A stretch of 36,391 nucleotides of DNA from NCBI GenBank assembly GCA_003990765.1, contig RBNJ01000221.1:1-36391 (forward strand), written 5' to 3'. The notes under the pieces were generated by a model, which saw only the letters and a program-made list of their open reading frames with translations, was not told the origin of the DNA and did no database searches. The stretch comes from Jimgerdemannia flammicorona (lineage: Eukaryota). The translations under genes and the position numbers were made by a program. How positions within the stretch are numbered: position 1 is the first letter of the stretch; each line of letters opens with the position of its first letter. Shown here one piece after another: positions 3,001-36,391 of the stretch.

Positions 3001-3069
3001 CGTCCCCTTGAATGACTCAAAGACAATTTCAGCCAATTTGGTTCTGTACATCGGACGGACGCGGAGTTT

Positions 3070-3101
<32 letters not shown>

Positions 3102-3343
3102 CTCGTGGTGTAGATACTCCACCAAACAGGGTATATTGATTCGACGACGTTCCATAATTTCAGAATTTATTTTACTAAATTTTTTCAACCACGAAAACGC
3201 ATGTATAGGAGGAAATAAATCTTGGAAAATTTGTATGTATGCAAAGGGAAAAGCAAAGCAATGTATTAAAATTGGCAGCGACACATTAAATCTACATTAT
3301 TCATGCCGAGTATGTACAAAAGCGCGCGAAGTCCGTTTATCTA

Positions 3344-4618
3344 TCACTTGATTCCGCTGTGAATGTCCGAAGAATTGGCATATCCCCTTAGAAACAAACC
3401 TCTCCACCCCTTCTTCTTTTCTTTCCGCGCCTTTATCTCCTCCGTTATCACCCTCGCCCTTTCCACCGCATCCTCATTCCCCTTTTTCCCAGCTCTCTCA
3501 TACCAATCCAACGCCTTCATCAAATCCATCTCAACCCGATATCCCACATGATACCTCCTCCCAAGCTCGTACATAGCGTCCGAAAGCCCTCCCTCCGCTG
3601 CCTTGCGCAGCCATCCATCCGAAACCACGACGTCTTTCTTCACCATACTCCCCTGCGCGTAAAACTTGCCCAACTGCCACTGCGCGCTCGTGTCGCCCAG
3701 CTCAGCCGAACGTGAAATCCAGTCGAAAGCTAGACCCTGGTTTTTGGGGAAACCGCTGTTGCCATTCATGTAGTTCTGCCCCACGCAGTACATCCCGTCC
3801 ATCGATCCCTCGTGTGCCGATTGCAGGAGCCAGTATCGCGCAACAAGTTCACGATCTCCTGCTGGGTCCTCCCCCACAACGTAACCTGGGACGAGACCGG
3901 CTTCCGCGTGACCGCATACCGCCGCCTCGGTGAGCCATCGTAAAGAGTGTTCGTCAATGACGGTTGTCTCGTTGCCATACAAGTAGAAGAAAGACAGAGT
4001 GAACTGCCCATACGCGTCCCCGCCCACTGCCGCGCTGACGAACCGCTCGAACGCTAGACTCTCGTCTTGCGCAACGCCAACCCCGCTTCCGTACGCGTCT
4101 CCCAGGAGCGACTGCGCATAGGCGTATCCCGGAGTAGATGGGGATTGTACTGCCGAGAGCAGAAGCTGCACAACGTGCGGGTGGATCGAGGCATCGGCAG
4201 ATTGTTTGTGGAACCGCGCGCTTAGTTCTGCTTGTGCGTGCATGTGGCCTCGGAGCGAGGATTTTGCGAGAAGGACGAGCGGATGCGCGTCTTCGGAGGA
4301 ATCGGTTTGCGAGAGGACGCCGAGAAATAAGAGGCGCGCGAGGATGTATTGCGCGTTTGGGTCGTTTGCCCGAGCGGATTCTTGCGTGTGCTTGAAGGCA
4401 GGGGCGGTGATGAGCGTCCGGACCCAGCGGTGGTCATCGTTGTCGGTATGTTTTGCGATGGCGTTGCATAGATTTGAAGTCCACTTGTCGCTTAATAATT
4501 GGTCGGCGGCGGAGTGGCTACCTGACATTGCTGAGTTCTGATATCGTTGGAAGGCCGCGTCGACATCTTTGGTGGTCTTTGACGCCAACTTAGCATGATT
4601 TAATTTGGTCACTGTCAT
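3344..4618 (-). CDS. Sel1-like repeat (SLR) protein, intronless, ~424 aa
   Basis: The long ORF carries repeated Sel1 motifs: AQSLLGDAYGSGVGVAQDESLAFERFVSAA, GMYCVGQNYMNGNSGFPKNQGLAFDWISRSAELG, AQWQLGKFYAQGSMVKKDVVVSDGWLRKAAEGG, AMYELGRRYHVGYRVEMDLMKALDWYERAG. The first ATG (MTVTKL) is at 4618; the ORF track's start at 4759 is not ATG. Confidence 0.92.
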   Translation of the reverse strand: MTVTKLNHAKLASKTTKDVDAAFQRYQNSAMSGSHSAADQLLSDKWTSNLCNAIAKHTDNDDHRWVRTLITAPAFKHTQESARANDPNAQYILARLLFLGVLSQTDSSEDAHPLVLLAKSSLRGHMHAQAELSARFHKQSADASIHPHVVQLLLSAVQSPSTPGYAYAQSLLGDAYGSGVGVAQDESLAFERFVSAAVGGDAYGQFTLSFFYLYGNETTVIDEHSLRWLTEAAVCGHAEAGLVPGYVVGEDPAGDRELVARYWLLQSAHEGSMDGMYCVGQNYMNGNSGFPKNQGLAFDWISRSAELGDTSAQWQLGKFYAQGSMVKKDVVVSDGWLRKAAEGGLSDAMYELGRRYHVGYRVEMDLMKALDWYERAGKKGNEDAVERARVITEEIKARKEKKKGWRGLFLRGYANSSDIHSGIK

Positions 4619-6340
4619 TGGGTTGGAATTCGATTTGTGAGGGAGAGTGAACGCTAAGGAGTATAAGTGCGACCAAGCAGTGGTTAAATACCCAGGGCTT
4701 TCTCCAATCCTGTCCTGCGGCCGAGCCCACGAGCACAGCTGAACGGACACAAAAATCAAGTGATCGCTTGGCGGGGGGCTGCACGCGCCACAGTTAATAA
4801 TGTATTGTCTATTCTAATTTTATGCCTTTGCAGGGAAGAAACTCCGTGTTCGTCGCGGGGCCGTGGTCTCATGGTGATCTAAAAATAAAGGACAGCTTGG
4901 CAGCCAAAATGGAGGATGTGTGACAAGAAATATAACATTTGTGGGCCGGGGGTTGTGCAAATGCATAGGGCTGGTTGGGGAAATGGCGAAGCAAATCGAT
5001 CAGAGCGCGTGATCTTTGGCAATTCGGCCTTATTTGGGCAAACGGTTTGGAGTCAATGCCGATGAACGGAAAGCTCGGCGAGAATATCAATGTTGTGAAC
5101 GATCGCGGCCTCACTAGTTGCCGAGGCGGTGAAAGTCTACATATATGTAGGATTGCTATTACAAACTCCAAAGCAGCGTTATGAATTGATTAGTGATTGC
5201 AAATTTGATTGGCTAGGAAATTTTGCGTGATGTGTTGGGTCCCGACCGAGCCTTGCAAAAATTGTCACAAATTCCAGAAAATAAACCGGGTTATCCACAG
5301 TCCCAAGTAAACACATCGCTAACGGCTCCGGTGTCTCACGTGTTGGAGAGGCAGAGGTAATGCAACAATCGTTCTTTGGCATCTGTCTAAAAGAAAAGAC
5401 GTTGCTGTACTTGAGTTGCTATTTGATATTTGGTGTGCTATGTGGCCGTTTTCATTTATCACATAATTTGTGACCAGGTACCATCACGCCATATTTGATT
5501 TAGCAGTCTCGGAATACCGACTGGGATCAGATTTAAGGAAATCGTAAACTTGACGTTGGGTTCGAATATGTCGTGAAGTATATATATTAAATCTTACAAT
5601 AGATGAGGTATATACGTGGGTATGGCAATATAAGACTTGTATATATAGTATAAAAATATCATGGATACTCTAATTAGTATCTTCAAATCATATGTAATAA
5701 GTATTAAACATCTATTATGAACCGTCTTTTATTCAGACAAGTTACTTAGAATAATTATTGTACTTTTCTGACTAAAAATAGATATTTAAATAAAGAGTTT
5801 TTAATTAAGGACTTTAAAATATGTAATTGGTTTAATTTTTTTTAAATTGTATATATATATCACATTTTCTATAATTTTATTTTGATAACAATAAAAATAT
5901 ATAATTATTAAATAACTTAGAATTCTTGATTTGTATTAAAACGATTTCCGGCATTCACGCTGATCACGTACTACTCATGACAACTACGCGACATCCTCTC
6001 CAAACATATATACACATCCGCAGCATATAAACCAGCAACACGCCGATCATCAGTCACGTTACATAAGCCCATGGTGATTGCTTTAGTAGCAAATAAAGTC
6101 AGTCGACCAAGAGTTGGGTCCGAGGCTCAAGAATCCGGGATCCAGGCTATTCCAAGAGACTATGGCAAACCGGAATGCAGAACGAACATAATTAGAACGT
6201 GCTTCAACGCAGAATTTACGCACAGCCAGGCTTCCCAATCGAAAGTAAAAATAGCATTTAGTTTTTTATATATTTTTGAAGCAGCTAATAATAATAATTA
6301 CATACAAATAAATTTAGTTAGATATTAATAATACATTCAA

Positions 6341-7913
6341 GGGAATTTTGGCAAAATGGCAATGATCTCAAATTATTTCTTGTCTTATGAGCAGTGGGGT
6401 GCAGAGGTAAGAAGGCACAGATGACAGAATAGAAAGAAGGTGGAGCACAGATATGGAGGACTCTTTTATTCAGCATTTCAAAGTACAAAACAAAACAATC
6501 AAACAAAACAAATGAAAAATTATTGTCTATAACTCAATAGGGCAGTTGCAAATATAAGTATTATGGTCAGACTGCTTGCAATATCTGCAGGTATAGCTCA
6601 TTATTATCTATACTAGTTTGGATTCATTTCATACAAGGGCAGCCATAAGCAATTTGGACAAAGAGAGAGTGGAGTATATCTTCTGAGAGCTTGCTAGCCA
6701 AAACTGGATCAATAACTTCAGTATACATATGTTCTATATAGGGCCTGATGATAGTACAATATACTGATGAAATCAGTAGACTCTAGATGATACTTGTGGA
6801 TAATAGCTAACATGTAGTAGCAAGAAATGCTTTACTCTTAAAAGTATCTATATAAGTAAGTCTTTGCTACCAAATCTACCCTTCTCTCCTTTTCTTCAAT
6901 ACTATACTTTACTATATATAAATAAGATCTCTTCATATTAGATAATATGAAGAGAGGCAGTATGCTTTACTAGCTGGCTAAAGCTGTCAGCAATATGCAT
7001 TCTAATATACTCAGAGACTGTGATATTAATATTGAGAGTATATATATCAGTAATATAAGATTATTATAATCTAGTATTTATAAAATCAAATGACAATAGC
7101 AAGAGCATACATATGGCACAACTCTAAGATTTTATTATTTATAGACTTAGTGAGATTAGTAGTAATATGTTTAAATTGAGAGACTGAAAATATGGCTTAT
7201 ATTTAGAACTTTATTTTGATGATAGAGATAGCAGACTATAGTTTGTCAGAGTAAGTATTCTTGAGATAATCTATTTGTTAAGTAAGTATATTAATATCAA
7301 ATATTTTTATAGTAGCCTATAGAATTTTTTTGAGTTTTGAAGGAAGATAGCAGACAGATATATATTAATAAATTACTATACTTCTAACCTCAGTATGATG
7401 TAAATACAAATCTTTGAACCTATAAAAAGATCTTTTTTTTTTTTTTCCAATTAGCCTTAAGATGATATAAGCAGTAGATATGTATATAATATATTAGAAA
7501 ACATAACTTCTGATACAGTAAGCAAACCTTTTTCATAATTAGAAAAGAATAGAATGGTTACATTTACTGGAGAAAGAATGGCAGTCTAAAGCTCTGACAA
7601 AAATCAAGTCTAATTTTCAGTATCTTCACTGCTGATGAAAGCATATATAAGTGAAATGATATTATTATTACTATTAAGCTTATTGGCAATGAGAAGGGTG
7701 CTATTTGATAAGATAATTTTGATAAAAGTACTATTAGCTATAAGGAGAGATATAAGGTGAGAAATTTGACAGAGTACAGTTTTAATTGGCAGTATGGCAG
7801 TATTAAGCATCTTATTTTGCAATATAGCAGTAAGCTGGAAATAATGTGCAAAATGGCAGTATTGACTGCCGTTCTGCAAATTATTTTGTTACAACTGCCA
7901 TTTCGCAAATTAT
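6341..7913 (-). mobile_element. Degenerate Mutator-like (MULE) DNA transposon remnant
   Basis: Manual minus-strand translation gives MULE motifs in the correct order, blurred by transitions. These are LLIANSTFIK (~DGTF.K), NSNNNIISLIYAFISSEDTEN*T*FL (~DGNNN..PLAYA...E..W.WFL), FSNYEKGLL (~SDREKGL), YCLYHLKANW, HITTNLTKSINN (~T.N..ES.N), SWIM KTYLYRYF*E*SISCYYMLA (~CSCG..Q..GIPC.H.LA), GCPCMK*I (~GRP..KRI) and the zinc knuckle CRYCKQSDHNTYIC. Related AAATGGCA motifs lie in inverted orientation near both ends. Confidence 0.88.
7841..7913. repeat. Hairpin and repeated motif at the MULE terminus
   Basis: ataatgtgcaaaatggcagt (7841-7860), an attg loop and actgccgttctgcaaattat (7865-7884) form a 17/20 inverted repeat. 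A third copy lies at 7894-7913 and a related copy at ~6344-6362. Confidence 0.75.
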
Positions 7914-8071
7914 GTTTTTCAATAAAGGCACGTGTCGACCCGGCTCTCCCCTGAAAACCTGATAGCGTATCTTTTACCTCATTCCCCGTCTACCCAACAA
8001 AATGTGCAGAAAAACCAAGCATACGTCAGCAGTGCATACCCCTCCGTCTCCTACACCAAACTGTCCCACAA

Positions 8072-12304: not shown

Positions 12305-13087
12305 GTTGAATGAGGTGGGGTGTGGGGGAAAGGAACAACATGTTTCCCTGCCAGATGGTGCGAAGTAAGCATCTCAGTTAATGTGGATCGGCAAATAGAA
12401 TGCTTGCTACGTTTCACGGCAGGGCGGGAAATATCCATACGTGGTGGTTCCCGCGATCATCATTTAAAATTGCTCTAGTCGAGCGGATCGGGTGCGCAAG
12501 TGACACCTCTCGTGGTTATTTGCCCAACACACGATGCACGAATATGCATCTCCTCATGAGATGCATCGGGATCATGGCCGTAAATGAAGAGATTCTCTCG
12601 GTGAAGCATGGAAGTAGGAAAATTGAATGTTATCGTCACTACCTGTGCAGCTACGCTTACGAAAATCCTCCGTTTTAAACCGACAAGCGAAAATTCGGAG
12701 GGGATCGGCACCACCGCACGAATTTGGCAAATCGATCAGTTCACACATGGCCTTGGCGACGGATTTGTATGACACGCCCAAAAAAATCTCCGGGAACCAT
12801 GTATGCGGGAGAACGGACCAGCTACAAATCAGCCAAACCCGACTTTTCGGAACGAGGTCCTGTCACTGTTTGCTTAGGCAATTCGCGGTCCCCTGACAAA
12901 TAGCGTGAAATCACCCATGCAGTTGGGCAAACTTCGCGTGAGAATGCGTTCAGGCTCTATCGACACGTCAAGCCCTTCTGGTGCACTTCCTCATGGAAGG
13001 TAGCAATTCAAGGTCTTGTTTCTGCTTGCGTTTAATTTGTTTTGTGTGCGTAGAGCATGGGTACGTGTCCCTTATTCTTTCGCCTTT

Positions 13088-13089
<2 letters not shown>

Positions 13090-13148
<59 letters not shown>
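13090..13148. repeat. Poly(T) tract, ~59 nt
   Basis: Seen directly; it is the longest of many A/T homopolymers in the window. Confidence 0.9.
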
Positions 13149-15806: not shown

Positions 15807-15845
<39 letters not shown>

Positions 15846-16349: not shown

Positions 16350-17136
16350 GGAAGGGGTCTTAGTCTCAAGGACGACATCGTCTCCATTTGGAAGGACTAT
16401 ATCACGATGTGACCATCGTCTGCACACGCAACGATGACGCCCCGTCGGCTTCGGAGCGCTATGCAGTTCTCTGACATCAACAATATGGATCCGGCTGGGA
16501 GATGGCGTGCCAAGCGCCTTGCTGCTCAAATGATGAGCCACTTGACCCTACATTAGCGGAAACCTTTCCTCTCCATATGGCGTATTGCCATCACGCCTGC
16601 AAGAACACCACATGCCCTACGGGGCATCCGTCCGCATGTCGCAAAAAGGCGTGCCACAATGTCAGCCTCCAGTGGGGTCGATCGAAAGTCGGTTCCCGAG
16701 TGGTTGTTTAGGAAGATGGCTAATTTGGGAAGCTTCAATCGGGGAATTCGGAACAAACAGCACGGGTTTCGGTTCCTGGGACGAATTTTCGCGAATAGGA
16801 CATTGTCGTTGAATTCAATGGATCGTATCGCACCTTTATCGTCTGTGAGATTTGGGCTCGTTGGAGAGTATTTCACCCATTTTGATAGTTGTATGAATCG
16901 CCAGCTGCATGTATGACCTTTCCAATTCTTCAAAAACGACGATATGCAATTGCTACAAAAGTGTTGCAAATGGCGATATCGTAACCTTGCATTTAAACCT
17001 AAATGATCATATCTGTACCCTTCCATCAATGGATTCAATTATGGAATAGCCTGGAGCAATCTCTCTAACATGGTGTACCCTACCGTGACCTTACGTAGAG
17101 GATGTAAATTATTGGATAAAAGATCGCTGAGGCTGA
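16350..17136 (+). pseudogene. Pseudogene duplicate of the BTB-SPRY gene at 21377-22871
   Basis: There is direct nucleotide similarity. 16363-16422 matches exon 1 (ctcaaggacga...gtcaccatcgtctgc, ~21403-21466). The match then jumps to ~22078 (cgtcggcttcggagcg), deleting the BTB core, and follows the gene to its stop (ggataaaagatc...gaggctga) with many indels and frameshifts. 3' flank homology continues to ~17462 (vs ~23230). Confidence 0.93.
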
Positions 17137-18287
17137 ACGACTTAGCAATATAAGCATTCTGCCTTAAAATTTTATGACCTATATACATTGTAGCCATAGC
17201 AGTTTTTTTTTTTTTTTTTTTTCGGCTCATGTCTTTTATAGTTGCGTTGAGAACATTTTAATTGAATTTTAACAAAATATATTTTTCTATTTCATTATCA
17301 GAAGTCTAATACATGAGCTTCCGGCTGTGATTTTACACTACTCATTCGATCCGGAATCAGGAATGTCGAATTCCAATTGCAGTTGAAAACACCCTGACCC
17401 ACAGGCACTGAAAGCGGCCTGGCAGGGCCCAACGCTTACCATGACTAGCATCTCCAATGAATGTTTGAATGGTTGTGATTCTGTTTTGGAGCCTTGTTTC
17501 CGGTATCCAAAATTTACATGGCCTTCTTGTTTCCCAAAGCAAGCGCGTCGGGGTCGACCCACGAACGAAACAACCCTCCTCTCTTCCCTCCCGGAAACCG
17601 AAAAGCTTTCCAAAGGACATCAGCTCCCTTGTTCTTTTTGCAGACCGAAACTTCTGTAATAACAGCCATAGAATTCGCGTTATATTCTCGCATGCACATA
17701 CCGTCCACATCTCCTTCTAATTGCGTATCAGACCATCATTAAATTAAAGCCGGTACTAAAAAAGACTTCGTCGGCAATGAAAACAACAAAAAAGCACTTG
17801 CTGAGTTGGTACTGTCCATTCCGGTTGGAATCCATTCTAATGTCCATGCATGCTGGGGTCGTACACGCAGCACTCATCTGAGAAACGTTAAAAGAAAACA
17901 GTTACCAAATATGCATCGATGTTTCAAGTTGTTGAGCTCCCGCGCAGGGGGCAATCACCAATTTGGACCATAAGCCCACAAAACCACCACACACGACTCG
18001 GCACGCACAAGAGACGAAAGCAGGCGTACATTCCCACGATCCAATATATACACTTGGCCGGCAAATTGCAGGGCTCATTGACTATATTTGAGGTCAATGT
18101 CAATCATTATTATACTGATATATTTTACTTTATTCTTGCATGAATGAGGCGAAACTAAAAAAGGTTGCAACGTCGCCTAATGGAAATTGACAGAGGGTCG
18201 CCGTAGCCAAATACTTATTGTTACATGGATACCCCGATAGTCGACTATAGCTGAGCACCTCCCCAACCCGCGGGCCCATAAACTGGC

Positions 18288-21376: not shown

Positions 21377-22871
21377 ATGGACATGGTCGAAAGCGGTATT
21401 TGCCTCAAGGACGATATTGTCTCCATCTGGAAGGACCCAACCTACCACGATGTCACCATCGTCTGCGCCGACGGTGTCGAGCTTGGCGCATGCCGTGCCG
21501 TACTGGCTTCAAGGTTTGTCCGATTTAACAGTTTAGTTTTTTCGTCGTTTTTCATACGCTTTCCACACTCCTGATTTCATATGATCTCTTAATAGATGCC
21601 AAGTTTTCAAGGCGATGCTGTATGGAAACATGCGAGAGGGTTCCTCTCAACGCGTCGTTCTCAACGATATCACCTCAACGGTGCTCAACATTGTCCTCGG
21701 ATTCATTCACACAGAAACTATTGACAATACTGTTGACATTTCCATCGCGGTAGGAATGTACCGCGCAGCAAATTTTCTCCTCCTCCCAAAGCTCATGAAA
21801 ATGGTACTGGATCATGCGCACGACCTCGCCGATTTTGGTGTGGCCTCATCGCTTCTCAACGAAGCCGTCGCCGCTATCCCTTGGAGCGAAGCCAACAAGG
21901 ACCTCTACGACATACTCCTCAACCCCTTTCGCGCTCACAAGCTCGCCATCGGCGAACTGACCGACCTTTCCGAAGAGGCCCTCGAGCTGCTCCTCACCGA
22001 GGCAGTGACCCTTTCCACGCCTGAGCACGACCTGTTGCTATGTGTCGTCGACTGGGTTTGGGGACGTAGCGAGAGGGCGCCGTCGGCTTCGGAGCGCCGT
22101 GCTGTTCTCCATAACATCAACGATATGGTTGCGGGGTGCGACAGCACGATCCAGCTAGGAGATGGTGCGTCGTGCGCCTTGCTACTCAAAATGATGAACC
22201 ACTTTGACCTCACGCTCGTCTGTCCACATCGACTAAAGATCCTTGCGGAGGCAGTCGATACGTTTGCGGGAACCTCTCCACACTACATGGCGTTTTGTCA
22301 CCACGCCTGCAAGAACACCGTATGCCCTACAGGTCATCCGTCCACAAGTCGCGGAAAGACGCGTCACAACGCCAGTCTCCAGTGGGATCGATCAAAAGTC
22401 GGTTCTCAAGTGATCGTTTCGGAAGATGGCCAGGTTGCGGAGCTTCCATTGGGTGTTTTAGGACAGACAGCACGAATTTCCGTTCCTGGGACAAAGATTC
22501 ACAACGATCTATGCAAATGGGACATTGTCGTTGAATCCATTGGATCGCAAAGCGTCTGTGAGATTGGGTTAGTTGGAGAGAAATTCGCACGTTTTGATAG
22601 TCTTATGGAATTTCAGACATCCGCATGGATTTTCCAATCTTGGGAAGGTAACAAACGTACGATGGTTGGACATAATCGTCACAATTACGGCGAAGTAATT
22701 AGAAATGGCGATCTCATAACCTTTCATTTAAACCTAAATGATCATACCTGTGCCCTTTCGATCAACGGATTCAATCACGGGACAGCCTGGAGAAATCTCC
22801 CTGACAAGGTGTACCCGGCTGTCTCCTTACGTGGAGGATGCAAGTATCGGATAAAAGATCATCGAGGCTGA
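21377..22871 (+). CDS. BTB/POZ (plus BACK-like) and C-terminal SPRY/B30.2-like domain protein, 470 aa, 2 exons
   Basis: Exon 1 (21377-21513) and exon 2 (21596-22871), with a gtttgt...aatag intron, give YHDVTIVCADGVELGACRAVLASRCQVFKAMLYGNMRE (BTB). The C-terminal part has WDIVVE...CEIGLVG...YGEVIRNGDLITFHLNLNDHTCALSINGFNHGTAWRNLPDKVYPAVSL (SPRY). Confidence 0.92.
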
Positions 22872-23231
22872 ATGATGAGATCACAAATAGTCCATCTGCT
22901 TTATCTTGGCAATATAATCATTCTGTATCATAACCTATATTGTATTGCCTTAAAATTTTTATGAGCTGTGTGCATTATAGTCATAGAAATTTTTTTCAAC
23001 TCATATCTTAACTATAAACTATTATGTCTGTTTTTAGTCATCTGTTAACAAAATGTAAAATGAATTTTAACTTTCTGTTTTATCATCAGAAGTTTAATCC
23101 ACCAGCTTCTAGTTGTGATTTTACACTATACATTCGATCCGAAATCAGGGATGTCGTACTCTAATTATAGTTCAAAACACCCTGACTGAAAGCGGCTTGG
23201 CGGAGCTGAATGCTTAACCTCCAATGAATCT

Positions 23232-25909: not shown

Positions 25910-26049
25910 GAATCCGGTTGTGATACCGGAATGGCAGTTCTGATTTCAGTAAAGGCGCTCACGGTTCTGGTGGGGATTTGATAAAAGGGGGGGTTTTTTT
26001 TTCAGAACAAGGTTGTTGACGACGTCACAGTATCGAATGAGATGCGGAA

Positions 26050-27528
26050 GTGTGGAATACAACAATTTAATGCAAAATATGCATAGGGATTTCCATTAAC
26101 CAGTAGTGCTAATGAAACTTTCTCAATCTAATTATAGTAGGACTCTGTATACATATGATTTACTTTACATTTCTGGTTTCACTTGCACAATACAATGTCA
26201 AATACAAATTGTCTGTATATTTGTATAGGTAATGGAAATTGCAGAAATATGACCATGATGTATCAACTATATAGGAAATGAGCTATCAAGATTTATACTG
26301 CTAATAATATACTTCAACTTCATACACTTATATTAAATCAACCAAAATGACACTGTAGTGATAATCTCAATTTTATTTATAATAATAGATACCTCTAATT
26401 AACTATAAGTTTACCTCAAAAAGACTGTCCAGTCTATACTCAACAAAGCCCACAGAGGGACTGTGGAATGATACATATTAATAGAAGATATATAATGTCA
26501 GATGAATAAATGTAGTATAATAAGATATTGATATATTACTAAAATATACACTATGATGGAAAAGCCAAGACAGAATTCTATAAGAGAACTTTTATCATTA
26601 ATACTCAAAATAAGTTTTCTAGTATAATGTCATTTACTCTTAATTATTATAAATAATCCAACTTCAGTTATATAATACAAAGCAGTAAAGAAGTTATTGA
26701 GCTTTATAATGAAACTATTTCTATTATTGATCTATATATATAATATAGTTGATAGAGCTAATAATCTGCTATATAATAGAGAAGAAGGATGATATAGATT
26801 AAAATAGATGTTTTAAAAGAAGCAGATACTATCAGTGAGATAGAGAGAGAAATAATAATACTATAAGTCCTATATAAAGCAAAAATTACCATAGTTTATT
26901 CTAACTATATATATTACAAAATATCTACAAACTCTCAATTACTAATCTACTATATAAGTTGGTAAAACCCACCTTACTCTCCTGATATATAATAATAGTA
27001 TTTATTAGTAATAGAGATATTGAGCACCTTCATCAGATAGGCAATAGTATTATAGTTGATCTTATGAATTATCTTGCTGAGTAATATAGAGATATAAATA
27101 AGAATATAATAAATATGAGATCATATTCTGCTATTTTGCCTAATATAGTAAACTAATATATACTATATAATATATACTACCTTAACCTCTCATTTTTCAT
27201 CCTTTCTTCTTAACCTTCTTCTATTATCTTTACTACTTTCCTATCTCTTCTCTCTCTCTTGTCAACTTATTTAAGAGGTTCTAGTTCCTATAAAACATTC
27301 TTTCAGACCTCAAAAACTAGACATCTATACTGTTAGTATATATAACTCTTACTCTCTCTCCTCTTCTGTCTAACTTCTTGTATATTATCATTGAATGAAA
27401 ATTTGCAATAAAGTAAGATTATCAGTATATCTGAGATAGAATATCTATACTAGATCACATTAGGCTATAGGTTGAAGAAGGAAATATATTATAGAATATG
27501 AGCAAGTATGTATGAGAATGTATTTTAA
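26050..27528. mobile_element. AT-rich, CpG-depleted decayed repeat DNA of unassigned family (similar composition resumes at ~32496-33740)
   Basis: It is TpA-rich and nearly CpG-free, like the MULE remnant. No motif was recognised. Confidence 0.4.
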
Positions 27529-27688
27529 TATAGCAAAGTATCTATCGAGTGACCAATTCAACAAAGTAGAAAAGGGGGGATTATGAAGCATAAAATATAG
27601 AATGTGTATAGGGGATAAAGTGGGGTAGGTTTGGCTATATGGAAGCATACACCTCCAAGGCCTGCCATTTGCATTAGCAAAAGGGGCC
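27529..27688. repeat. Split direct repeat B2 (160 bp; B1 at 28026-28185)
   Basis: Manual alignment shows no indels and 15 mismatches, 14 of them transitions. Confidence 0.95.
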
Positions 27689-27730
27689 TTCTTTTATTAT
27701 ATACTACTAAAAGGGGATGGGTGGGAGGGT

Positions 27731-28030
27731 TATGTGAATTGATTGTAAATACTAGTGACTAATTGCAACTTGGCATAGTATATACCTGACTAGCTGAGAT
27801 GTGACAAATACTCAGTCGCTGGACCGATTACATTGTTACTAACTCACATTAATAGTTGGTATATTTTTAAAACACCACTAGCTAAGTTATCTTTGGTATA
27901 GAAAGGGACAAGAAACTGCATGAAATGAGCTAAACTAAGTCCGCTAAGGGGAAATTGCATGATTGTTCCACATAATGTTAAGCGGCTCTTGGCCACTTTG
28001 CTGAAGTTTGAATTGTATTTATAACTATAT
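27731..28030. repeat. Split direct repeat A2 (300 bp; A1 at 32196-32495)
   Basis: Manual alignment shows no indels and 22 mismatches, all transitions. Confidence 0.95.
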
Positions 28031-28299
28031 CAAAGTGTCTATTGAGTGACCAATTCAATGAAGTAGAAAAGGGGGGATTATGAAGCATAAAATGTAGAAT
28101 GTGTATAAGGGATGAAGTGAGGTAGGTTTGGCTATATGGAAGCATATGCCTCCAAGGCCCACCATTTGCATTAGCGAAGGGGGCCAAAACTGCAGGCCTG
28201 GGAAGTGGTTTTAGGCTCTTAATGGTGCCATAAACCACTTATGGGCGAAATTCGGCCATTACCAGCCAAACCCATGACCCACTGAAGATCAGGTAGAGG

Positions 28300-29140
28300 G
28301 AGTCCTGCTAGTGTTGCCGTGGTTTTGGGGAGAATGTGGTCGAGGTGTCGAATGTAGTGGAGAAATACGGTGGATTTCCATTGACCAGCAAGTTGAATGA
28401 CATGATCAGGATAGCCCTCGGCTGCCAGAAGTGTGGCACCACCAATTCGAAAGGAGTGACCATAAATACCGACAGCTAGGGAGGTGCCCGTAAGCAGAGA
28501 TCAAATCGCTTCAATGAATGTAGATCGAGAAAGTGGTGGTCCAGGCCAAGGCAGAAGGCGGGGTCATGAGGTTGCACTGGGAGAATATGGACCATGTTGT
28601 CAATTGCAGTATATGGGCAATTGAAGGTGCCAGAGAAGCCAAGGAAGACATTGCCTGCTCCACCTGTTTTTGTTCGGGGAAGATGTAGAGTCCAGAATGG
28701 TCGAGAAAGGGTGTCATCCAGTCAGCGATGAAGATGGCAATGACAAATTTACCAATTTGGATTGAATACGGAGCCATCTCGAGTAGTAAATTCACCAACA
28801 CACATTAAGCCATAAAAAGCAGAGCATGCTGCTGCCCAAATAGTAGCACCAAAAGGAGTATCTATGTGGAGAGAAAGACAGATAGACTAGAGGTGTTGGC
28901 ACATAATAGGAAGCCAGTTGAGTAAACTGGAAGGTGGTGGGTGAGTCTGAATAGACTTCATAATGGTGTTGAAGAGGGGTAGAGAAAGGCACTGGAGTGG
29001 AGGACCACGCCAGTGAGCAACCTGATAGACTGCGAGATTATAGAAGTAGTTCTTGATAGTGGAGTAGGGCTTGCCATCTTAGACAAGCCAAAGAGCCCAA
29101 TAACTGAGTAATTCATCTTGAAGAGGGAAACCAGCGACCT
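28300..29140 (-). pseudogene. Tyrosine recombinase of the Ngaro element (disrupted)
   Basis: The catalytic region GIYGHSFRIGGATLLAAEGYPDHVIQLAGQWKSTVFLHYIRHL (~28470-28340) carries H-x-x-R, G(R)W and the Y nucleophile. The N-terminal part reads FPLQDELLSYWALWLV*DGKPYSTIKNY. Boundaries are approximate. Confidence 0.9.
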
Positions 29141-29299
29141 CTACAATATTGCAGGAGTTGAGAAATCAGTATAGAGAATTGGTGCCTGACCAGAAGTTAC
29201 CCATTCGAGTGTGGGTACATTAGTAGAGACAGGTGTCGAATTGATGGCGAAGCCAAAGAGGGATGTGATTAATGTAGGCAATGGGTTCTGGGGATATGG

Positions 29300-30860
29300 A
29301 GGGAGTATATAGCAAGATAAGGGGTCCACAGGGTTAGATGCTGAAGAGATGTAATGAGCTTGAATTTCGAATCCGATTTTGAGATGTAAGAGAATGATAC
29401 AACAAAGTAAGTTATTGACAAGAGGATGATGGCATGCCTGATTACTGGTCAACAATTTGACACAGGGCTAGCTATCACACTAGAGAATAATATGTTGAGA
29501 ATGAAACAAGGGGCCCCAGAGCACTAACGAGATCCAAATGGCAAACATTTCTTTCCAGAATATGTCATAGCCATTCAGATCTAAGAAGAAGGGAGCCCAA
29601 CAAGTACTCCACCAGTGTTGGCCCAGCAGGCCACTGGCACCAAGTGTCCCAGATGCATCTGTAAACAGACCACAATCGAGTCACTCAGAATGGTAGAGCA
29701 GGCAATGACCTGGCCATGAGTGTAGAATATCATACCACTACTGTAAGTCGGTGGCTAGTCGAGGAGGTGGAAAATGCTACCCCACATAGGGTGGTTTCCA
29801 AGAGAAAGCAAAGCGAATGATGCTGTTGCAAAACACCTTCCCATCTGGAAGTATTTGAACAATGTGTATAAGATGGCCTGAGAGTGATTGAGCTTCATGG
29901 TGTGAACGTGGACATAGATGGTATGATCGAGTCTACTGAGCCGGTATAAGCCATGATGCTAGTAAGGTGAGAATGCATGTGCGTTTCTTCATTGGGAGAC
30001 TAATCGTCATTATTGGAGTGTCGAGAATAAAGCCAACATACTCTATAGTTGGAGTAAGAGAAATATCTTTGGAGGGTTTGAGTGGGAGGCCGAATCGAGA
30101 TGCGGTAGCATGAAATTGATTATAGGAGGAGAACATGCTGGACGGAAGTGTGACATAGATAAAGTCATCAATGAAATGGCCCAAGTTAGAGAGATTGTAC
30201 AGTTGAATACAGATCCGGATAAAGAGGTCCATGAGAGATGTGAAGATAAAGGGAGCAGAGCAAAGACCAAAGGGGAGGAACATATTGAGGAAGAAAAGAC
30301 CAAGCCAGTAGATATCCTACATAGCCCAATTGGAGCAGTGTACTGAGATAGTGCAGAAGGCATCAGCCACATCAGCCTTCCAGAAGAGCGCAGTAGAGCC
30401 AACTGAGAGGAGAAGGAGAATGACAGCTTGAATGGACTGATACTGGATTGAGAACTTCTCAGGATTGATTCTGTCATTGACTGAACTCTCGTAGAGAAAG
30501 GATAGATGTTGTATAGTATGAAATTTGGACAAGTGCTTCTTAGGAATGGCACCGAGGGGTGCATTGCAAAAGGGACAGAATTCTGGTGGTATGGAGGAGA
30601 GAGATGAAAATGGGCCAAGATAGCGATCTGTAGCTAGCTCAGTGAGAATGTTGGTGGAGAGAACTTCTTGGTGCTGGTAAGCAGAGGTAAGGTTGTTGGA
30701 TATGAGGTCGATACAAAGCTCAGGGTGAGAGTGATTTCCATGCTGATAACCATGGTAGAGACCTGTTAGGTGGTACTGAATGAGTGATTGGTTTGGATGT
30801 GAATGCAGTACCCTTTTCCACTCCTTAATATGGTACAGGGTGGTTGGGTGACTAGAAGTG
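29300..30860 (-). pseudogene. Reverse transcriptase-RNase H of the Ngaro element (disrupted)
   Basis: RT motifs are GPFSS, PLGAIPKK, IQHLSF, SVNDRI, FWKADVADAF, LPFGLCSAPFIF, HFIDDF and EYVGFILDT. RNase H motifs are LFTDAS, IFWKEMFAI and HYISSASNPVDPLS. Confidence 0.92.
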
Positions 30861-30875
30861 GGGGGAATCAAGAGA

Positions 30876-32184
30876 TTAGCCATAGCGAGCAGAGCAAGCC
30901 AGGGCTGTGTGAGGTCCATAGCAGAAGAGGCATACATGCACTCGACCACAGTTTCGATAGGAGCAACCAGAGCTGACAGACTGAGCTTGCTGCACCATCT
31001 GGGTAGATAGGATCATCTGGCTTGGATGGGAAAGTAGGATGCTGGAGTGGGGTTTGGGTGCAGGAGCCAACGGCATGTCTCCGCACCCCACATCGAAAGT
31101 ACAAGAGGTTGGTGGATGAGACCAGTTTTGGGCCACCAGCCAGGTGGGCAGTTGATGAACTTCCCACCACATGAGATCCAGCATAGGAGAACGTAGAGCA
31201 ACATTAGTATGCTAAGGGTGCTGAGGAAGGTTGGCCGATGATTGTCTCAAATGTACAGCGAACCATATCTGGATTGCTGATGTCCAAGTCAGGGAAGGAG
31301 GCCTTGAGTGTATGAACTTGATGGTCAAAGCATTGAAGTACCACCCAGTCATAACAATCATTTATCACTTTAATGATAAAGATTGTGTGGGCAAGAAGTT
31401 GAGGAGCATGGGATGCATGCAAGGTCAATCGGGTGGTACCCAGAGCCAGTAGAGCACCTCGGATGTTAAAGATGGCTTCAAGCCACAGTGGTAGATCTAG
31501 GTTGTAGTCAGGCATGTATATATCTGCTTTTTTGTGGCTGCTTGATCATGAAATGAGAGCGCTGCTGGTCCATTTGGATAGAATCTGATAGTCACTCACA
31601 TCTAGTGATGCCAGCAAGTCGGGCAGTACCCAATTCCATCAAAGCACAGCATCCGAAATGAGAGACAAGGAAGACTCACCACTTTGCAGATTTGGTAGTA
31701 ATTGCGACATCAACCTTATCATGGGAGGTGGTGGCATAAAGGAGGCCATAGCTGAGGGAGGAGTAGTGGTCAGTAGAGGAATTGTCTGTAATAAGCCCAC
31801 TGGTAGCCCTGATACTGGCAGAGTAATTAAGTTGGGGCCTATTGGTATGATGGACAGATGTGTTGCAAGGTGCCCAACTAAAGTAAGAATTAAGCATTCA
31901 ATAAGGGTATCTTCAGCTTGCTCTCCAATAATCAGCTGAGGTAGAGGGTTGGAACTTAGATGGTGTAAGTTGAGATGCATAACTAGTGTGGCTTTTTGAC
32001 CTTCAACTGACAGATGATATTCACGACACAGTGTGACTAGCTGTTCTTTGCAATAAGCACATAGGCCAGATAGATTGGGAATGGGGGAGGGGTGAGGTTC
32101 ATGTAAGGGGACTAAGGGGGCAACTGGTCTTGGGGCTATAGCTGGTTCCAAAGGACCATGAGACTGAGTGCGAATTGGGGGTAT
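30876..32184 (-). pseudogene. Gag-like ORF of the Ngaro element with N-terminal SAP-like motif and C-terminal zinc finger (disrupted)
   Basis: The probable start has mutated ATG>ATA at 32184, in frame with ORF 31639-32151. The SAP-like motif is LSGLCAYCKEQLVTLCREYHLSVEGQKATLVMHL. The C-terminal GCSYRNCGRVHVCLFCYGPHTALAC is a Cys/His finger typical of DIRS/Ngaro Gag. Confidence 0.8.
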
Positions 32185-32195
32185 TGTGAATGTGG

Positions 32196-32495
32196 TATAT
32201 GAACTGATTGTAAATACTAGCGACTAATTGCAACTTAGTGTAGTATATACCTGACTAGCTAAGATGTGATGAATACTCAGTTGCTGGACTGATTACATTG
32301 TTACTAACTCACATTAATGGTTGGTATATTTTTAAAACACCACTAGCTAAGTTATCTTTAGCATAGAAAGGGACAAGAAACTGCATGAAATGAGCTAAAC
32401 TAAGTCCGCCAAGAGGAAATTGCATGATTGTTCTACATAATGTTAAGCGGCTCTCAGCCACTTTGCTAAAGTTTGAATTGCATTCATAACTATAT
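32196..32495. repeat. Split direct repeat A1 (5' terminus of the element)
   Basis: It is a 300-bp direct repeat of 27731-28030. Confidence 0.95.
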
Positions 32496-33880
32496 GACTA
32501 AAATAGTTATACTGATTATAGCTATAGAAATAAGATATGTGAGTTAAATAAAAGAATGACTCAGATGGTAGACTATGGTAAGAGTAATTATATTTGGCAG
32601 TGAGCCTAGAAATAAAGTTGAGACAAGATTCCATATTCATGTTTATATTGGTATCTTTGAGAAAGTAATAGAATATAGGACTATCTGTTAGTACATCAGT
32701 AGCTTAAATATATGTATCCCTTTGTCTGTAGATAAGATTGTCTTTTAAAATCATTTAGCAGACAAATTAAAGTTTGAAAAAAATGATTTTTTGAAACATT
32801 GTTTTTCTGTTAAAAATATATCTCAATTTGTTTAAAACCAACTTTTTTTTTTTTTATAAAATTTTTACCAATGGTAGAATTATTATATAAAATATTATTG
32901 ATAATTTTTTTTTTAAAAGCTATTATGATTTTAAAAGTTATAAACTTTTAAAATCTTGCCTCTAAATATAGGTGCAAAACAGTCAAAGAGATATGGAAGG
33001 AGGAGAGTAATTGTTAGAGAGAGAGATTATTGTGATCAGTCTTATAAAGAGAAGGGATCTATAGAGTCCAAGTTGTCATTGAGCTTAAGAATACTTTTGA
33101 GATTAGAAGTCAAGAATAGAAAATAATATAGTAAGAGAAAATAATATCTCTTAAGCTACTTTAACTAATTCTACTAATTTTTAGCTGATATATATATATT
33201 TATAAATAAGCAATCCCCATTCATAGTAATAGAGTTGGCCCTATATTAGCAGTTAGTATTACAATAGTACAAGAGATAGATAGCTTATAGAACAGCTTGT
33301 AGGTTATAGTTTGTAATAGTGATAAACTTTCCAGATCAGTACAGAGAGGCTACATGAAGTTTGAATATTCAAATTCTGTTTTTTTCTTTAGAGATTATTT
33401 TGTTACATAGATGACAAACAGTATTATTATTCTAAGATACTCTTAATAGTTCTAATAATAAATAGTATTATTATTAAGATCTATTAATAAATAGTATTGT
33501 CAATAAAGTAGTATTATTATTGGGGTACTCAGAGTTTTCTTGACCAAAGATCATATTTTCAAGAATATTAATATCCAAGTACTCTAATCAATCTACTTAT
33601 ACTCTATTTTTATAGTTTATAATTTTCATATACTTTATTTCCACTAGTTATCATATATCTCAAAGAGGAGAGGTAGGTTGAATTGATAAGTGCTTTTATA
33701 GCAAAGCCTGAAGAGTAGCATTATAGGATTGTGGATGCTGATTTTTTTTTTTTTTTTTTTGCAGTTATCAGCCAAATACTCATTGACCAAATGGCCTAGT
33801 GGCCGTTTCTCCAGTCTCAGATGATTTGATGATGTAATTCATATGCCAAGCCAAGTATAGTGTACAGTACTTATACCCAA

Positions 33881-34315
33881 CCTTTTTGCTACTCCTTTTT
33901 AATATACTTAATAAAACAAAAATAAAAATTATAAATTAATAGAACATTCTATCAAGTTTAATCTAATGAAGAGTTTTTTTTATTATTATATATAATATTT
34001 TAATAAAAGTAGTTTTTTTCACTATTTTATAATAGATATTGTGACTTACTAAGACTAGTCACAATTTTGGCCTTAAATTTAAGCACTTTACAAAGCCAAA
34101 TTAAAAATAAAAAAATTTGAAGTTACAAAATAAAATTGAATCATAATTTATGCTCAAATTTTTGTCACTTCTTTTTGCTACTTTTTCTTAATATATTTAA
34201 TAAAAAAATAATAAAAATCATAAATTGATAAAAAATCTTATAAAGTATAAAACTATGAAGAGTAATTTTTTAATTACTATATATAATATATTAATAAAAA
34301 CAGGTTTTTTACTTA
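33881..34315. repeat. Imperfect ~140-bp AT-rich direct repeat (33881-34020 vs ~34171-34315)
   Basis: Both copies begin ctttttgctact and share ...taataaaa...ataaatt...atgaagagt...tatatataatat...taataaaa. Confidence 0.7.
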
Positions 34316-34545
34316 TATTTATATTTTTTTTATATTTTTTAAATCCTTTCTCCTCTACATTAGTCATATTAAAAAATATTATTATTAGAAATATAATAGT
34401 AAATATTATCTACTTTACTTTTATGAAGAGTTTTTTTTTTAATTTTTTCTAATTATAGTAATATATAAATTTAAATTATATATAATTATGAGATACTGTG
34501 ACTAATAGACTAAGTACTTTTTTAAGGCCAAAATTGTGACCAGCC
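34053..34545. mobile_element. MITE-like inverted-repeat unit
   Basis: gtcacaattttggccttaaa (34058-34077) and tttaaggccaaaattgtgac (34521-34540) form a perfect 20-bp inverted repeat, extendable to 25 bp with 2 transitions. Extra copies of the motif lie at ~34550 and ~34780. No target-site duplication was found. Confidence 0.5.
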
Positions 34546-34941
34546 TTAATTTAAGGCCAAAATTATGCCAAATTTAAATAAAATAAACATTTCACATAAA
34601 TATAAATAACCTTATAAATATATCTCCAAATTTATTTATCTTTATTATGTTAGATTCCTGTACTAAATGTGGATGTAACAAGCTAAAGTACATTCAAATT
34701 GAATGTATATTAATAGAGTTATTAATGTTTTTGTGGTTATATCTATAGATAGGTCTATTTTCTCAAGTTGGCTTTCATTTAAAGCCAAAATTGTGATTGG
34801 CCTTTTGCTGAGCTGAATTCATTCCCAGTGTGACTCTACATTTTATTTCTAACTCAGCCATAAGATCATTTATCTGTCAATATTGTCAACAATCTTTCTT
34901 GATATCTTACAAAACTAAGATATATAATATATATATTTTTC

Positions 34942-35800
34942 TGAGATGAGTGATGGGAGATGAGATGAGTGATGGGAAATGAGATAGGTGATGGGAGATG
35001 GGTGATGGGAGATGGGCAATGGGTGATGGGAGATGGGCAATAGAAGATGAGATAAGTGATGGGAGATAGGAGACAAGACAGATAATAGGAGATAGGCGAT
35101 GAGAGATGGGCAATGAGAGATGAGATGAGCGATGGGAGACAAGATGAGTGATGAGAGACAAGCCAAGTGATGAGAGACAAGCTGAGCGATGGGAGACAAG
35201 ACAAGTGATGGGAGATGAAACAAGTGATGGGAGACAAGATGAGTGATGGAAGACAAGATGCCAATGAGAGATAAGACAAGCAATGGGAGATGAAACAAGT
35301 AATGGGAGATGAAACAAGTAATGGGAGATGAAATGAGCGATAGGAGATAAGATGGGCAATGGGAGATAGGCAATGGAAGATAGGTGTCTTGTCTCCCATC
35401 GCCCATCTTGTCTCTTATCGCTTGTTTCATCTCCCATCGCTCATTTTGTCTCCTATCACTTGTCTTGTCTCCTATTGGCATCTTGTCTCTCATTGCCCAT
35501 CTTGTCTCCTATTGCTCATTTCATCTCCCATCGCTCATCTTATCTCCTATTACTTGGCTCATCTCTCATCGCTCATCTCATCTCCCATTGCTTGTCTCAT
35601 CTTTCATCACCCATCTCCCATCACCTGTCTTGTCTCCCATCACTCATCTCATCTCCCATTACTCATCTTATCTCCCATTGCTTGTCTCATCTCCCATTGC
35701 TCATCTCATCTCCCATTGCTCATCTCATCTCCTATCGCTCATCTTGTCTTCCATTGTCCATCTCCCATCATCTGTCTCCCATTGCCCATCTCCTATCACC
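34942..35800. repeat. Foldback palindrome of GATGGGAGA(C/T)-type minisatellite units
   Basis: A purine-rich arm (34942-35384) is followed by its pyrimidine-rich reverse-complement-like arm (35388-35800), with a centre at tgt 35385-35387. Confidence 0.9.
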
Positions 35801-35924
35801 CTTTTAGATGATTTTACTAAATTATTAAATTTATATTTTTTAGTTATAACAAAATGCTAAGACTATCTAAACGATCTCAGTACTTACAAAGTTTAAAATA
35901 TCAAAAAAGTAAACTGGAAGAAGA

Positions 35925-36220
35925 GATTATAGGTAAATATTATTATATATAAATATTATTAATATTATTAATATATTAATTATAATTATAATAATAATAA
36001 TAATATAGATGATAATAATAAGAGAGAAGATGATGATGAAAAGGAAGAAGATAGTGAGGAGGAAGATAATGAAAGAGAAGAAGATGAGAATGATGATGAT
36101 GAAGATGAAAGAGAAGAAGAAGATGAGAATGATAATAAAGATGAAGATATAGATGAAGATGAGAATACAGATAAAGATAAAGATAGAGATGAGAATGATG
36201 ATGAGGATGAAGATAAAAAG
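35925..36220. repeat. Low-complexity (TAA)n/(GAT,GAA,GAG)n tract
   Basis: Seen directly; it may be a decayed Asp/Glu-rich coding stretch. Confidence 0.8.
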
Positions 36221-36391
36221 GCTGACAGCAGTTGGGAACCTCATATTTTTGCACTCAAAGTTCACATGAAAAATTTAGAGAATCTATCTCTAAATTATAT
36301 TTTAAAATATCACCATATATCACAATATATGGTATTTAGAAACAATAACAGGAGTGCTTCTCAAGCTAGTCATCTGATTGCAGAAAGTATC

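Follow-up and report, generated by a model that had tools for sequence, protein, structure and literature searches.

Nearly pure C>T decay in the split direct repeats of a Ngaro-like retrotransposon of Jimgerdemannia flammicorona, with CpG as the chief target

Repeat-induced point mutation (RIP), as known from Neurospora and other Pezizomycotina, produces C:G>T:A changes that are confined to repeats, strikes both copies and both strands, and disables elements through premature stops without frameshifts. It is usually recognized by a TpA/ApT ratio of at least 0.89, a (CpA+TpG)/(ApC+GpT) ratio of at most 1.03, and a composite RIP index (CRI) above 0. In addition, Horns et al. (2012) and Hood et al. 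(2005) are said to have described a CpG-biased (TpCpG) hypermutation of transposons in Pucciniomycotina and Microbotryum, where a RIP-like process and the decay of 5-methylcytosine (5mC) are reportedly debated as its cause. Herein we analyze a stretch of 36,391 nucleotides (nt) from Jimgerdemannia flammicorona (contig RBNJ01000221.1, positions 1 to 36,391; the window), which carries, at 27519-32495 on the minus strand, a dead Ngaro-like retrotransposon with a putative tyrosine recombinase (YR), whose direct repeats, A and B, differ almost exclusively by transitions. The locus resembles the Pucciniomycotina cases in having a CpG-centred transition bias in transposon copies of a fungus presumably without RID, and differs in its phylum.

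RID is listed as described from Ascomycota only (PMC13297926, Table 1), and a kingdom-wide screen by Badet and Croll (2025) reports ascomycetes as unique in RIP-like enrichment (PMC12543289). As for Mucoromycotina, the relevant statement of Dallaire et al. (2021) is that RIP signatures are undetected there (PMC8647823, citing Venice 2020). In Zymoseptoria tritici, a Dim2-dependent mitotic mutator is reported to place more than 98% of its C>T changes at CpA and to spare CpG (PMC8016269). CpG-methylated transposons are also described for Basidiomycota in two reviews (PMC13297926, PMC7862722). Within Mucoromycota, Phycomyces is credited with DNMT1 and a DIM-2-like enzyme, and with CG methylation above non-CG methylation (PMC7862722, PMC13297926), and Rhizophagus irregularis with bimodal CpG methylation on its transposons and an expressed DNMT1-like enzyme (PMC8647823). 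Among the papers returned by our literature searches, none was found on 5mC or RIP in Endogonales, the group of Mucoromycotina to which J. flammicorona belongs.

A and B belong to one degraded element, of which they form the split direct repeats (Table 1). Given this layout, the replication model of YR retrotransposons implies that both A copies, and likewise both B copies, should have been identical when this copy of the element was made. The two pairs were compared ungapped and were also aligned by blastn, giving 460 aligned nt in total. Between A1 and A2 there are 22 differences in 300 sites, all of them transitions, with no indel (E 5e-125, 0 gaps), and between B1 and B2 there are 15 in 160, with 14 transitions and a single transversion (G/T at 27533; E 7.5e-60); these counts are exactly those given in an initial annotation of the window. 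Together, the pairs show 36 transitions to one transversion and no indel. When sorted by context, the transitions comprise 12 at six paired sites, where one copy reads CA and the other TG, five at single CpG/TpG sites, 14 at CpA/TpA, three at CpT, and two at CpC. The A pair by itself contributes nine CpG-type changes (three paired sites and three single ones), 11 CpA/TpA changes, and two others, and the recount matched the earlier tally of about 9, 11, and 2.

A paired CA/TG site implies an ancestral CpG that was struck on opposite strands in the two copies, and with six such sites the CpG decay proposed at the outset is real. In all, 17 of the 36 transitions are of the CpG type, 17 of the 26 visible CpG copies are mutated, and just two CpG dinucleotides remain intact in both copies. 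CpG, ahead of CpA, is the chief target in these repeats. Outside CpG, a CpA site is more prone to change (14/67) than a CpT or CpC site (5/99; odds ratio 5.0, p=0.0024). Changes at CpA are balanced between strands (on the plus strand, five C/T versus nine G/A, p=0.42), and the transitions, including those at CpA, are spread over all four repeat segments.

Other duplications in the window lack this bias. A frameshifted pseudogene lies 5.7 kb upstream of its parent, a BTB-SPRY gene, and differs from the gene (16352-17438 versus 21391-23216) by 110 transitions, 58 transversions, and 138 gap positions, which is far from 36:1 (Fisher p=3e-5). Similarly, two AT-rich local repeat pairs have transition-to-transversion ratios of 14:13 and 2:17 (pooled 16:30 versus 36:1, p=7e-10). 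Thus, the bias is neither the general mutation spectrum of the genome nor a trait of every duplication. The CpG landscape is bimodal. The observed/expected ratio (O/E) of CpG is 0.32 in the element interior (0.19-0.38 across the element), where CpA/TpG is enriched (O/E 1.36), and 0.22 in a nearby satellite; it is 1.17 in the pseudogene, 1.04-1.13 in the four host open reading frames (ORFs) tested, and about 0.9-1.3 in the majority of kilobases that carry genes. AT-rich blocks, like the satellite, are low in CpG too (0.03-0.5). CpG depletion with TpG/CpA enrichment is therefore present in the element and absent from genes.

The direction of change follows from the satellite and from the coding regions. 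The satellite consists of 19-nt units arranged in head-to-head inverted arms. Rows that contained gaps or more than a single transversion were left out, and the 36 clean units kept from 49 aligned rows differ from the reference unit by 120 transitions and three transversions. T occupies 23 of 216 cells at six non-CpG C positions, versus a transition in 1 of 216 cells at six T/A positions (p=2e-6). At the three CpG-derived positions, the CG/TG/CA/TA states number 9/10/13/4, 0/12/22/2, and 0/11/20/5. In pol, stop X425 (TAG, 29738-29740) falls on an invariant Trp of three homologues, which indicates TGG>TAG, and conserved Arg codons of the element now read TGC, TGC, and CAA. The satellite, the Trp stop, and the Arg losses to Cys, His, or Gln codons agree on C>T and G>A rather than A>G, and the earlier claim of a C:G>T:A process, as opposed to drift, is borne out by them. 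The same claim had catalytic motifs hit in this manner. A GRW motif of the recombinase indeed reads GQW, through a CAA codon in 'AGQWKS' (Cre has GGW), whereas the ATG>ATA change that was also mentioned could not be located.

Some other lines of evidence were abandoned. The excess of TAG among pol stops (six of seven) was rejected as evidence for a CpA preference, because C>T change yields stops only from CAA, CAG, CGA, and TGG; it demonstrates only that non-CpG C>T activity occurred. A codon-level comparison of pol with a related element, L001, and three homologues was dropped as noisy, since 49 of 64 informative codons carried two or more base differences. L001 was also tried as an outgroup to polarize the differences within A and B, but its repeats could be aligned with them at the ends only.

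L001 was found by a scan of metagenome contigs (JADMIO011545310.1, element at 1388-6339). Its pol is 52% identical to that of the J. flammicorona element over residues 22-619, and its layout is the same, including the 42-nt spacer that separates the last A from the last B. The repeat pairs of L001, 402 sites in all, carry 19 differences, again transitions only: 12 in six paired CA/TG sites, five at single CpG, one at CpA, and one at CpT, so that 17 of 19 are of the CpG type, and no CpG is conserved. CpG decay is equally advanced in the two elements (17/22 copies in L001 versus 17/26, p=0.53). However, the non-CpG load is about ten times lower in L001 (2/163 versus 19/166, p=1.4e-4), as are changes at CpA considered separately (1/57 versus 14/67, p=0.0015), and TpA O/E is 0.57 in L001 versus 0.77 in the element, a difference that fits the conversion of about 10% of CpA to TpA. 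Where the element has CAA for the Arg of the GRW motif, L001 has TGC, and at two further conserved Arg positions the element has TGC and L001 CAT; the opposite-strand signature of CpG is thus seen across elements as well. Two other candidates from the scan, L002 and L003 (16-residue matches), were discarded for want of direct repeats.

We next consider RIP proper; the initial annotation had called the pattern RIP-like. The annotation had set apart an ascomycete host with canonical RID, for which RIP would be ordinary, from a host outside Dikarya, for which the pattern could reflect a poorly described genome-defence system. The host is of the latter kind: an exon at 9680-10303 matches RUP52460.1, a thioredoxin-like protein of J. 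flammicorona, at 100% identity, and this species belongs to Mucoromycota. With RIP, the locus shares C:G>T:A changes confined to repeats (36 of 37 differences, strand-balanced, in both copies and all four segments), and an element that was disabled by premature stops without frameshifts. Nonetheless, two of the hallmarks of canonical RIP that were tested are lacking: CpA does not dominate, and not every duplication is affected. There are 14 CpA changes versus 17 at CpG, and relative to available sites the gap is wider (14/67 versus 17/26). The indices that had been proposed as a check fall on the non-RIP side in the element interior, with TpA/ApT at 0.70, (CpA+TpG)/(ApC+GpT) at 1.52, and CRI at -0.82, and the CpA/TpG enrichment there is of the kind that CpG decay yields. 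RIP would act on any sizeable duplication, linked gene duplicates included, and the duplicated pseudogene was spared (110:58). L001 shows CpG decay almost exclusively, and the satellite has no CpA preference; in the satellite, T is found at 6/36 in CpA (position 6), 6/36 in CpC (position 5), and 7/36 in CpT (position 16). In addition, the host genome, of about 240 Mb, is reported to be more than 77% repeats (PMC10386755), as part of a group, Endogonales, with very large genomes.

Nor does the locus conform to a Dim2-type mutator, in which C>T change falls nearly all at CpA and CpG is spared. The two cases are alike in that transposons, methylated in Z. tritici, gain C>T changes and in that CpA is favoured among non-CpG sites, and Mucoromycota have a member, Phycomyces, with a reported DIM-2-like enzyme; the two cases differ in that CpG, as reported spared in Z. 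tritici (PMC8016269), is the context struck hardest in the J. flammicorona element. The idea of a RIP-like process in both contexts therefore survives in part: C>T decay is present and restricted to transposon and satellite, its CpG part is beyond doubt, and this copy has an excess at CpA, but RIP machinery is disfavoured. The process is not RIP in the Neurospora sense, and the evidence favours decay driven by methylation.

The dominant CpG component appears to stem from deamination of 5mC targeted to repeats, together with a weaker non-CpG C>T component, a reading to which we assign a probability of roughly 0.6. Since insertion, the four repeat segments and the coding interior would have gathered almost solely C>T and G>A changes. 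Their main component, CpG>TpG/CpA, would be due to deamination of 5mC, with CpG methylation aimed at transposons and satellites and genes spared. A second, weaker component would convert non-CpG cytosines, with CpA favoured in the A and B repeats and not in the nearby satellite; its likely cause would be either non-CpG methylation at a lower level or deamination assisted by a methyltransferase. Jointly, a silencing mark would slowly and irreversibly kill the element, by way of premature stops and the replacement of Arg by Cys, His, or Gln. The likeness to the decay of methylated transposons lies in the loss of CpG and gain of TpG/CpA in the transposon and the satellite and not in genes, in a transition-only spectrum, and in TG in one copy where the other has CA (six sites here, six in L001, and three satellite positions). 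Moreover, the bimodal CpG O/E of the window resembles the bimodal CpG methylation reported for transposons of R. irregularis (PMC8647823). The case departs from plain 5mC decay in its extra non-CpG load (19/166) with a CpA excess and in its extreme purity, and methylation is deduced here from the sequence alone.

Several of these features weigh against 5mC decay as a sufficient account. Background change is nearly nil (one transversion in 920 nt here, none in 804 nt of L001), although about two thirds of the CpG copies are lost, and such purity is more extreme than passive decay usually gives, judged by mammalian rates. The tenfold difference in non-CpG load between two elements with similar CpG decay implies that the second component does not simply scale with CpG decay. 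Finally, the excess at CpA over CpT and CpC is not explained by CpG-maintenance methylation alone.

These are the points at which an active, enzyme-driven mutator would do better. Such a mutator, whether RIP-like, Dim2-like as in Zymoseptoria, or a cytosine deaminase, would act on repeats or heterochromatin in bursts at CpG and CpA, as a genome defence without canonical RID. We consider it unlikely, if well short of negligible. It would account for the purity of the spectrum (36:1 here, 19:0 in L001, 120:3 in the satellite), the lack of indels in the A pair, the fivefold enrichment of CpA over CpT/CpC, the uncoupling of the non-CpG load from CpG decay, the higher TpA O/E of the element with its implied 10% conversion of CpA, and a pol of 623 codons with no frameshift yet seven premature stops; a methyltransferase-dependent mitotic mutator of CpA provides a precedent (PMC8016269). 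However, its main target here would be CpG, not CpA, the RIP indices are negative, and a duplicated pseudogene 5.7 kb from its parent was left untouched. The CpA evidence consists of 14 sites in 460 nt, with no echo in the satellite or L001. In a genome reported to be more than 77% repeats (PMC10386755), any such defence must be weak, and the published screens, in the results they state, place RIP-like signatures in ascomycetes only (PMC12543289) and report none in Mucoromycotina (PMC8647823, citing Venice 2020). A narrower proposal, that Endogonales possess an enzyme-driven cytosine mutator of heterochromatic repeats that strikes CpG, as well as CpA in certain episodes or at certain loci, and that works without the RID of ascomycetes, is more doubtful still. 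If it were true, RIP-like genome defence would have been invented independently here, or the mutator would represent its ancestral state, and the trace left by the mutator would be a non-CpG load about ten times that of L001 despite equal CpG decay.

It is very improbable that the differences predate or accompany integration, through editing of RNA or complementary DNA (cDNA; APOBEC-like C>U or ADAR-like A>I) or through two diverged templates, in which case the genomic repeats would have differed from the start. Editing enzymes typically leave spectra of transitions only, and A>G after U would, in principle, be one way to read TA/TG differences. However, paired CA/TG sites require strikes on both strands of double-stranded DNA, the changes are spread across the four repeat segments, and a satellite that is no transposon has the same spectrum. 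A-to-I editing is rejected on polarity, which is C>T and not A>G, and strand-specific editing of cDNA on strand balance (5 versus 9, p=0.42). Ordinary neutral divergence, with a natural transition bias and a context pattern due to chance, has practically no prospect of being right, for although just 37 differences were scored and two copies give no direct polarity, it is refuted by the 110:58 of the pseudogene control (p=3e-5), by a binomial test (p=3e-6), and by the independent recurrence of the pattern in L001 (19:0) and the satellite (120:3).

The J. flammicorona repeats at this locus thus carry a very pure signature of C>T decay that is absent from genes and from a duplicated pseudogene. 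Read as 5mC decay, the signature predicts transposon-targeted 5mC in an uncultured ectomycorrhizal lineage. Moreover, split direct repeats within single YR elements are internally dated pairs, and so offer an assay that tells an active mutator apart from passive decay of 5mC. RIP-like mutagenesis would extend beyond Dikarya if the CpA component were to hold throughout the genome.

Table 1. Features of the window that are discussed in the text
Feature	Position	Strand	Remarks
Control pseudogene	16352..17438	+	Frameshifted copy of the 3' (SPRY) part of the BTB-SPRY gene at 21585-22871; broken frames; signature absent
Repeat B1	27529..27688	-	3'-terminal B in coding orientation; 160 nt; 15 differences from B2
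A1/B1 spacer	27689..27730	-	42 nt; polypurine on the plus strand; L001 counterpart (6170-6211) of equal length, with a similar polypyrimidine start
Repeat A1	27731..28030	-	Internal 3' copy of A; 300 nt
Repeat B2	28026..28185	-	B copy immediately past the ORFs
Degraded YR ORF	28219..29078	-	Two frames; stops at 28889 (TAG), 28751 (TAA), and 28724 (TGA)
pol (reverse transcriptase and RNase H)	29141..31012	-	623 codons in a single frame; 0 frameshifts; 7 premature stops
gag-like ORF	31204..32223	-	SAP-like motif; two in-frame TGA stops (31641, 31548); 31% amino acid identity to L001 gag
Repeat A2	32196..32495	-	5'-terminal A in coding orientation; 300 nt
19-nt satellite	34938..35812		Head-to-head inverted arms: 34938-35386 G-rich, 35387-35812 C-rich

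In minus-strand order, A2, the ORFs, B2, A1, the 42-nt spacer, and B1 correspond to the A1-ORFs-B1-A2-B2 layout of Ngaro-like elements, which are described as having such split direct repeats and no DIRS methyltransferase domain (PMC3783388, PMC13465315). The similarity of B1 runs on to 27519, into a copy of about 10 nt of the end of A. The reverse transcriptase domain of pol is clear (Pfam RVT_1, E 4.5e-7), and the RNase H is a weak match (RT_RNaseH, E 0.13) with a visible TDAS motif; the homologues P0002 and P0003 match pol at E 1e-26 to 1e-28 with 27-30% identity. The premature stops of pol are six TAG (30319, 29935, 29779, 29740, 29482, and 29470) and one TGA (29683). The recombinase matches Pfam Phage_integrase below the cut-off (E 0.074). 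Among its best 20 matches in PDB, 17 are Cre or Tre, all weak (E 0.11-1.4). Cre residues 268-311 were aligned, and in that weak alignment (E 0.11) HxxR, W, and Y line up; the catalytic C-terminus reads GHSFRIGGAT...AGQW...HYIR. The YR pieces are 53-65% identical in amino acids to the YR of L001.

A methyltransferase domain, which is a trait of DIRS and PAT elements, was sought in P0009 and the YR pieces, and no Dam-like match was found at E<=1. There is also no room for one, with about 55 codons between the end of RNase H and the pol stop, and YR beginning at 29078. The likeness to Ngaro-like elements consists of split direct repeats, ORFs in overlapping frames for a gag-like protein, a reverse transcriptase with a probable RNase H, and a putative YR, and the lack of a methyltransferase domain; the difference is that the closest protein relatives found are just 24-30% identical, or 52% for L001. 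A 2013 survey of fungi is reported to confine Ngaro to Dikarya and to place DIRS in Mucoromycotina (PMC3783388), and unlike in that distribution, the Ngaro-type layout without a methyltransferase domain occurs here (27519-32495, minus strand) in a Mucoromycotina host.

Some further features of the two elements were observed. The coding strand (28186-32195) is 60% pyrimidine, with G at only 17%, at all three codon positions, and that of L001 (1388-6339) is 56% pyrimidine. Because transitions leave the purine/pyrimidine content unchanged, this skew is not a product of hypermutation. At an identical codon, both elements have TAG followed by TGG (29738-29740; L001 4213-4215), where the three homologues have an invariant Trp-Trp; the shared TAG could reflect independent TGG>TAG strikes on a hotspot, or be an ancient in-frame stop subject to readthrough. 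A remnant of a Tc1/mariner-like DDE transposase (45-653, minus strand) adjoins L001, and both flanks of L001 have a CpG O/E of 0.1.

The satellite arms are about 450 nt each and 72-83% complementary, with very AT-rich flanks and an inferred ancestral unit with three CpGs. CpG O/E is 0.00-0.42 in the AT-rich blocks 6001-8000, 26001-28000, and 32001-35000. A G+C content of 22-35% and a TpA/ApT ratio of about 1.0-1.1 were observed at 6001-8000, 26001-27500, and 32500-34900. Of the 53 ORFs of at least 45 codons in these CpG-poor blocks, 35 were scanned with Pfam, which gave no transposon domain and one TPR fragment only, so the blocks are not demonstrable as old transposons, although they may be fully decayed repeats. 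Elsewhere in the window, pure poly-T runs of 64 nt (13085-13148), 35 nt (3067-3101), and 31 nt (15814-15844) lie between genes, and an open-ended ORF at 35972-36391 encodes an extremely acidic, low-complexity stretch rich in D, E, and N, whose underlying DNA contains no CpG.

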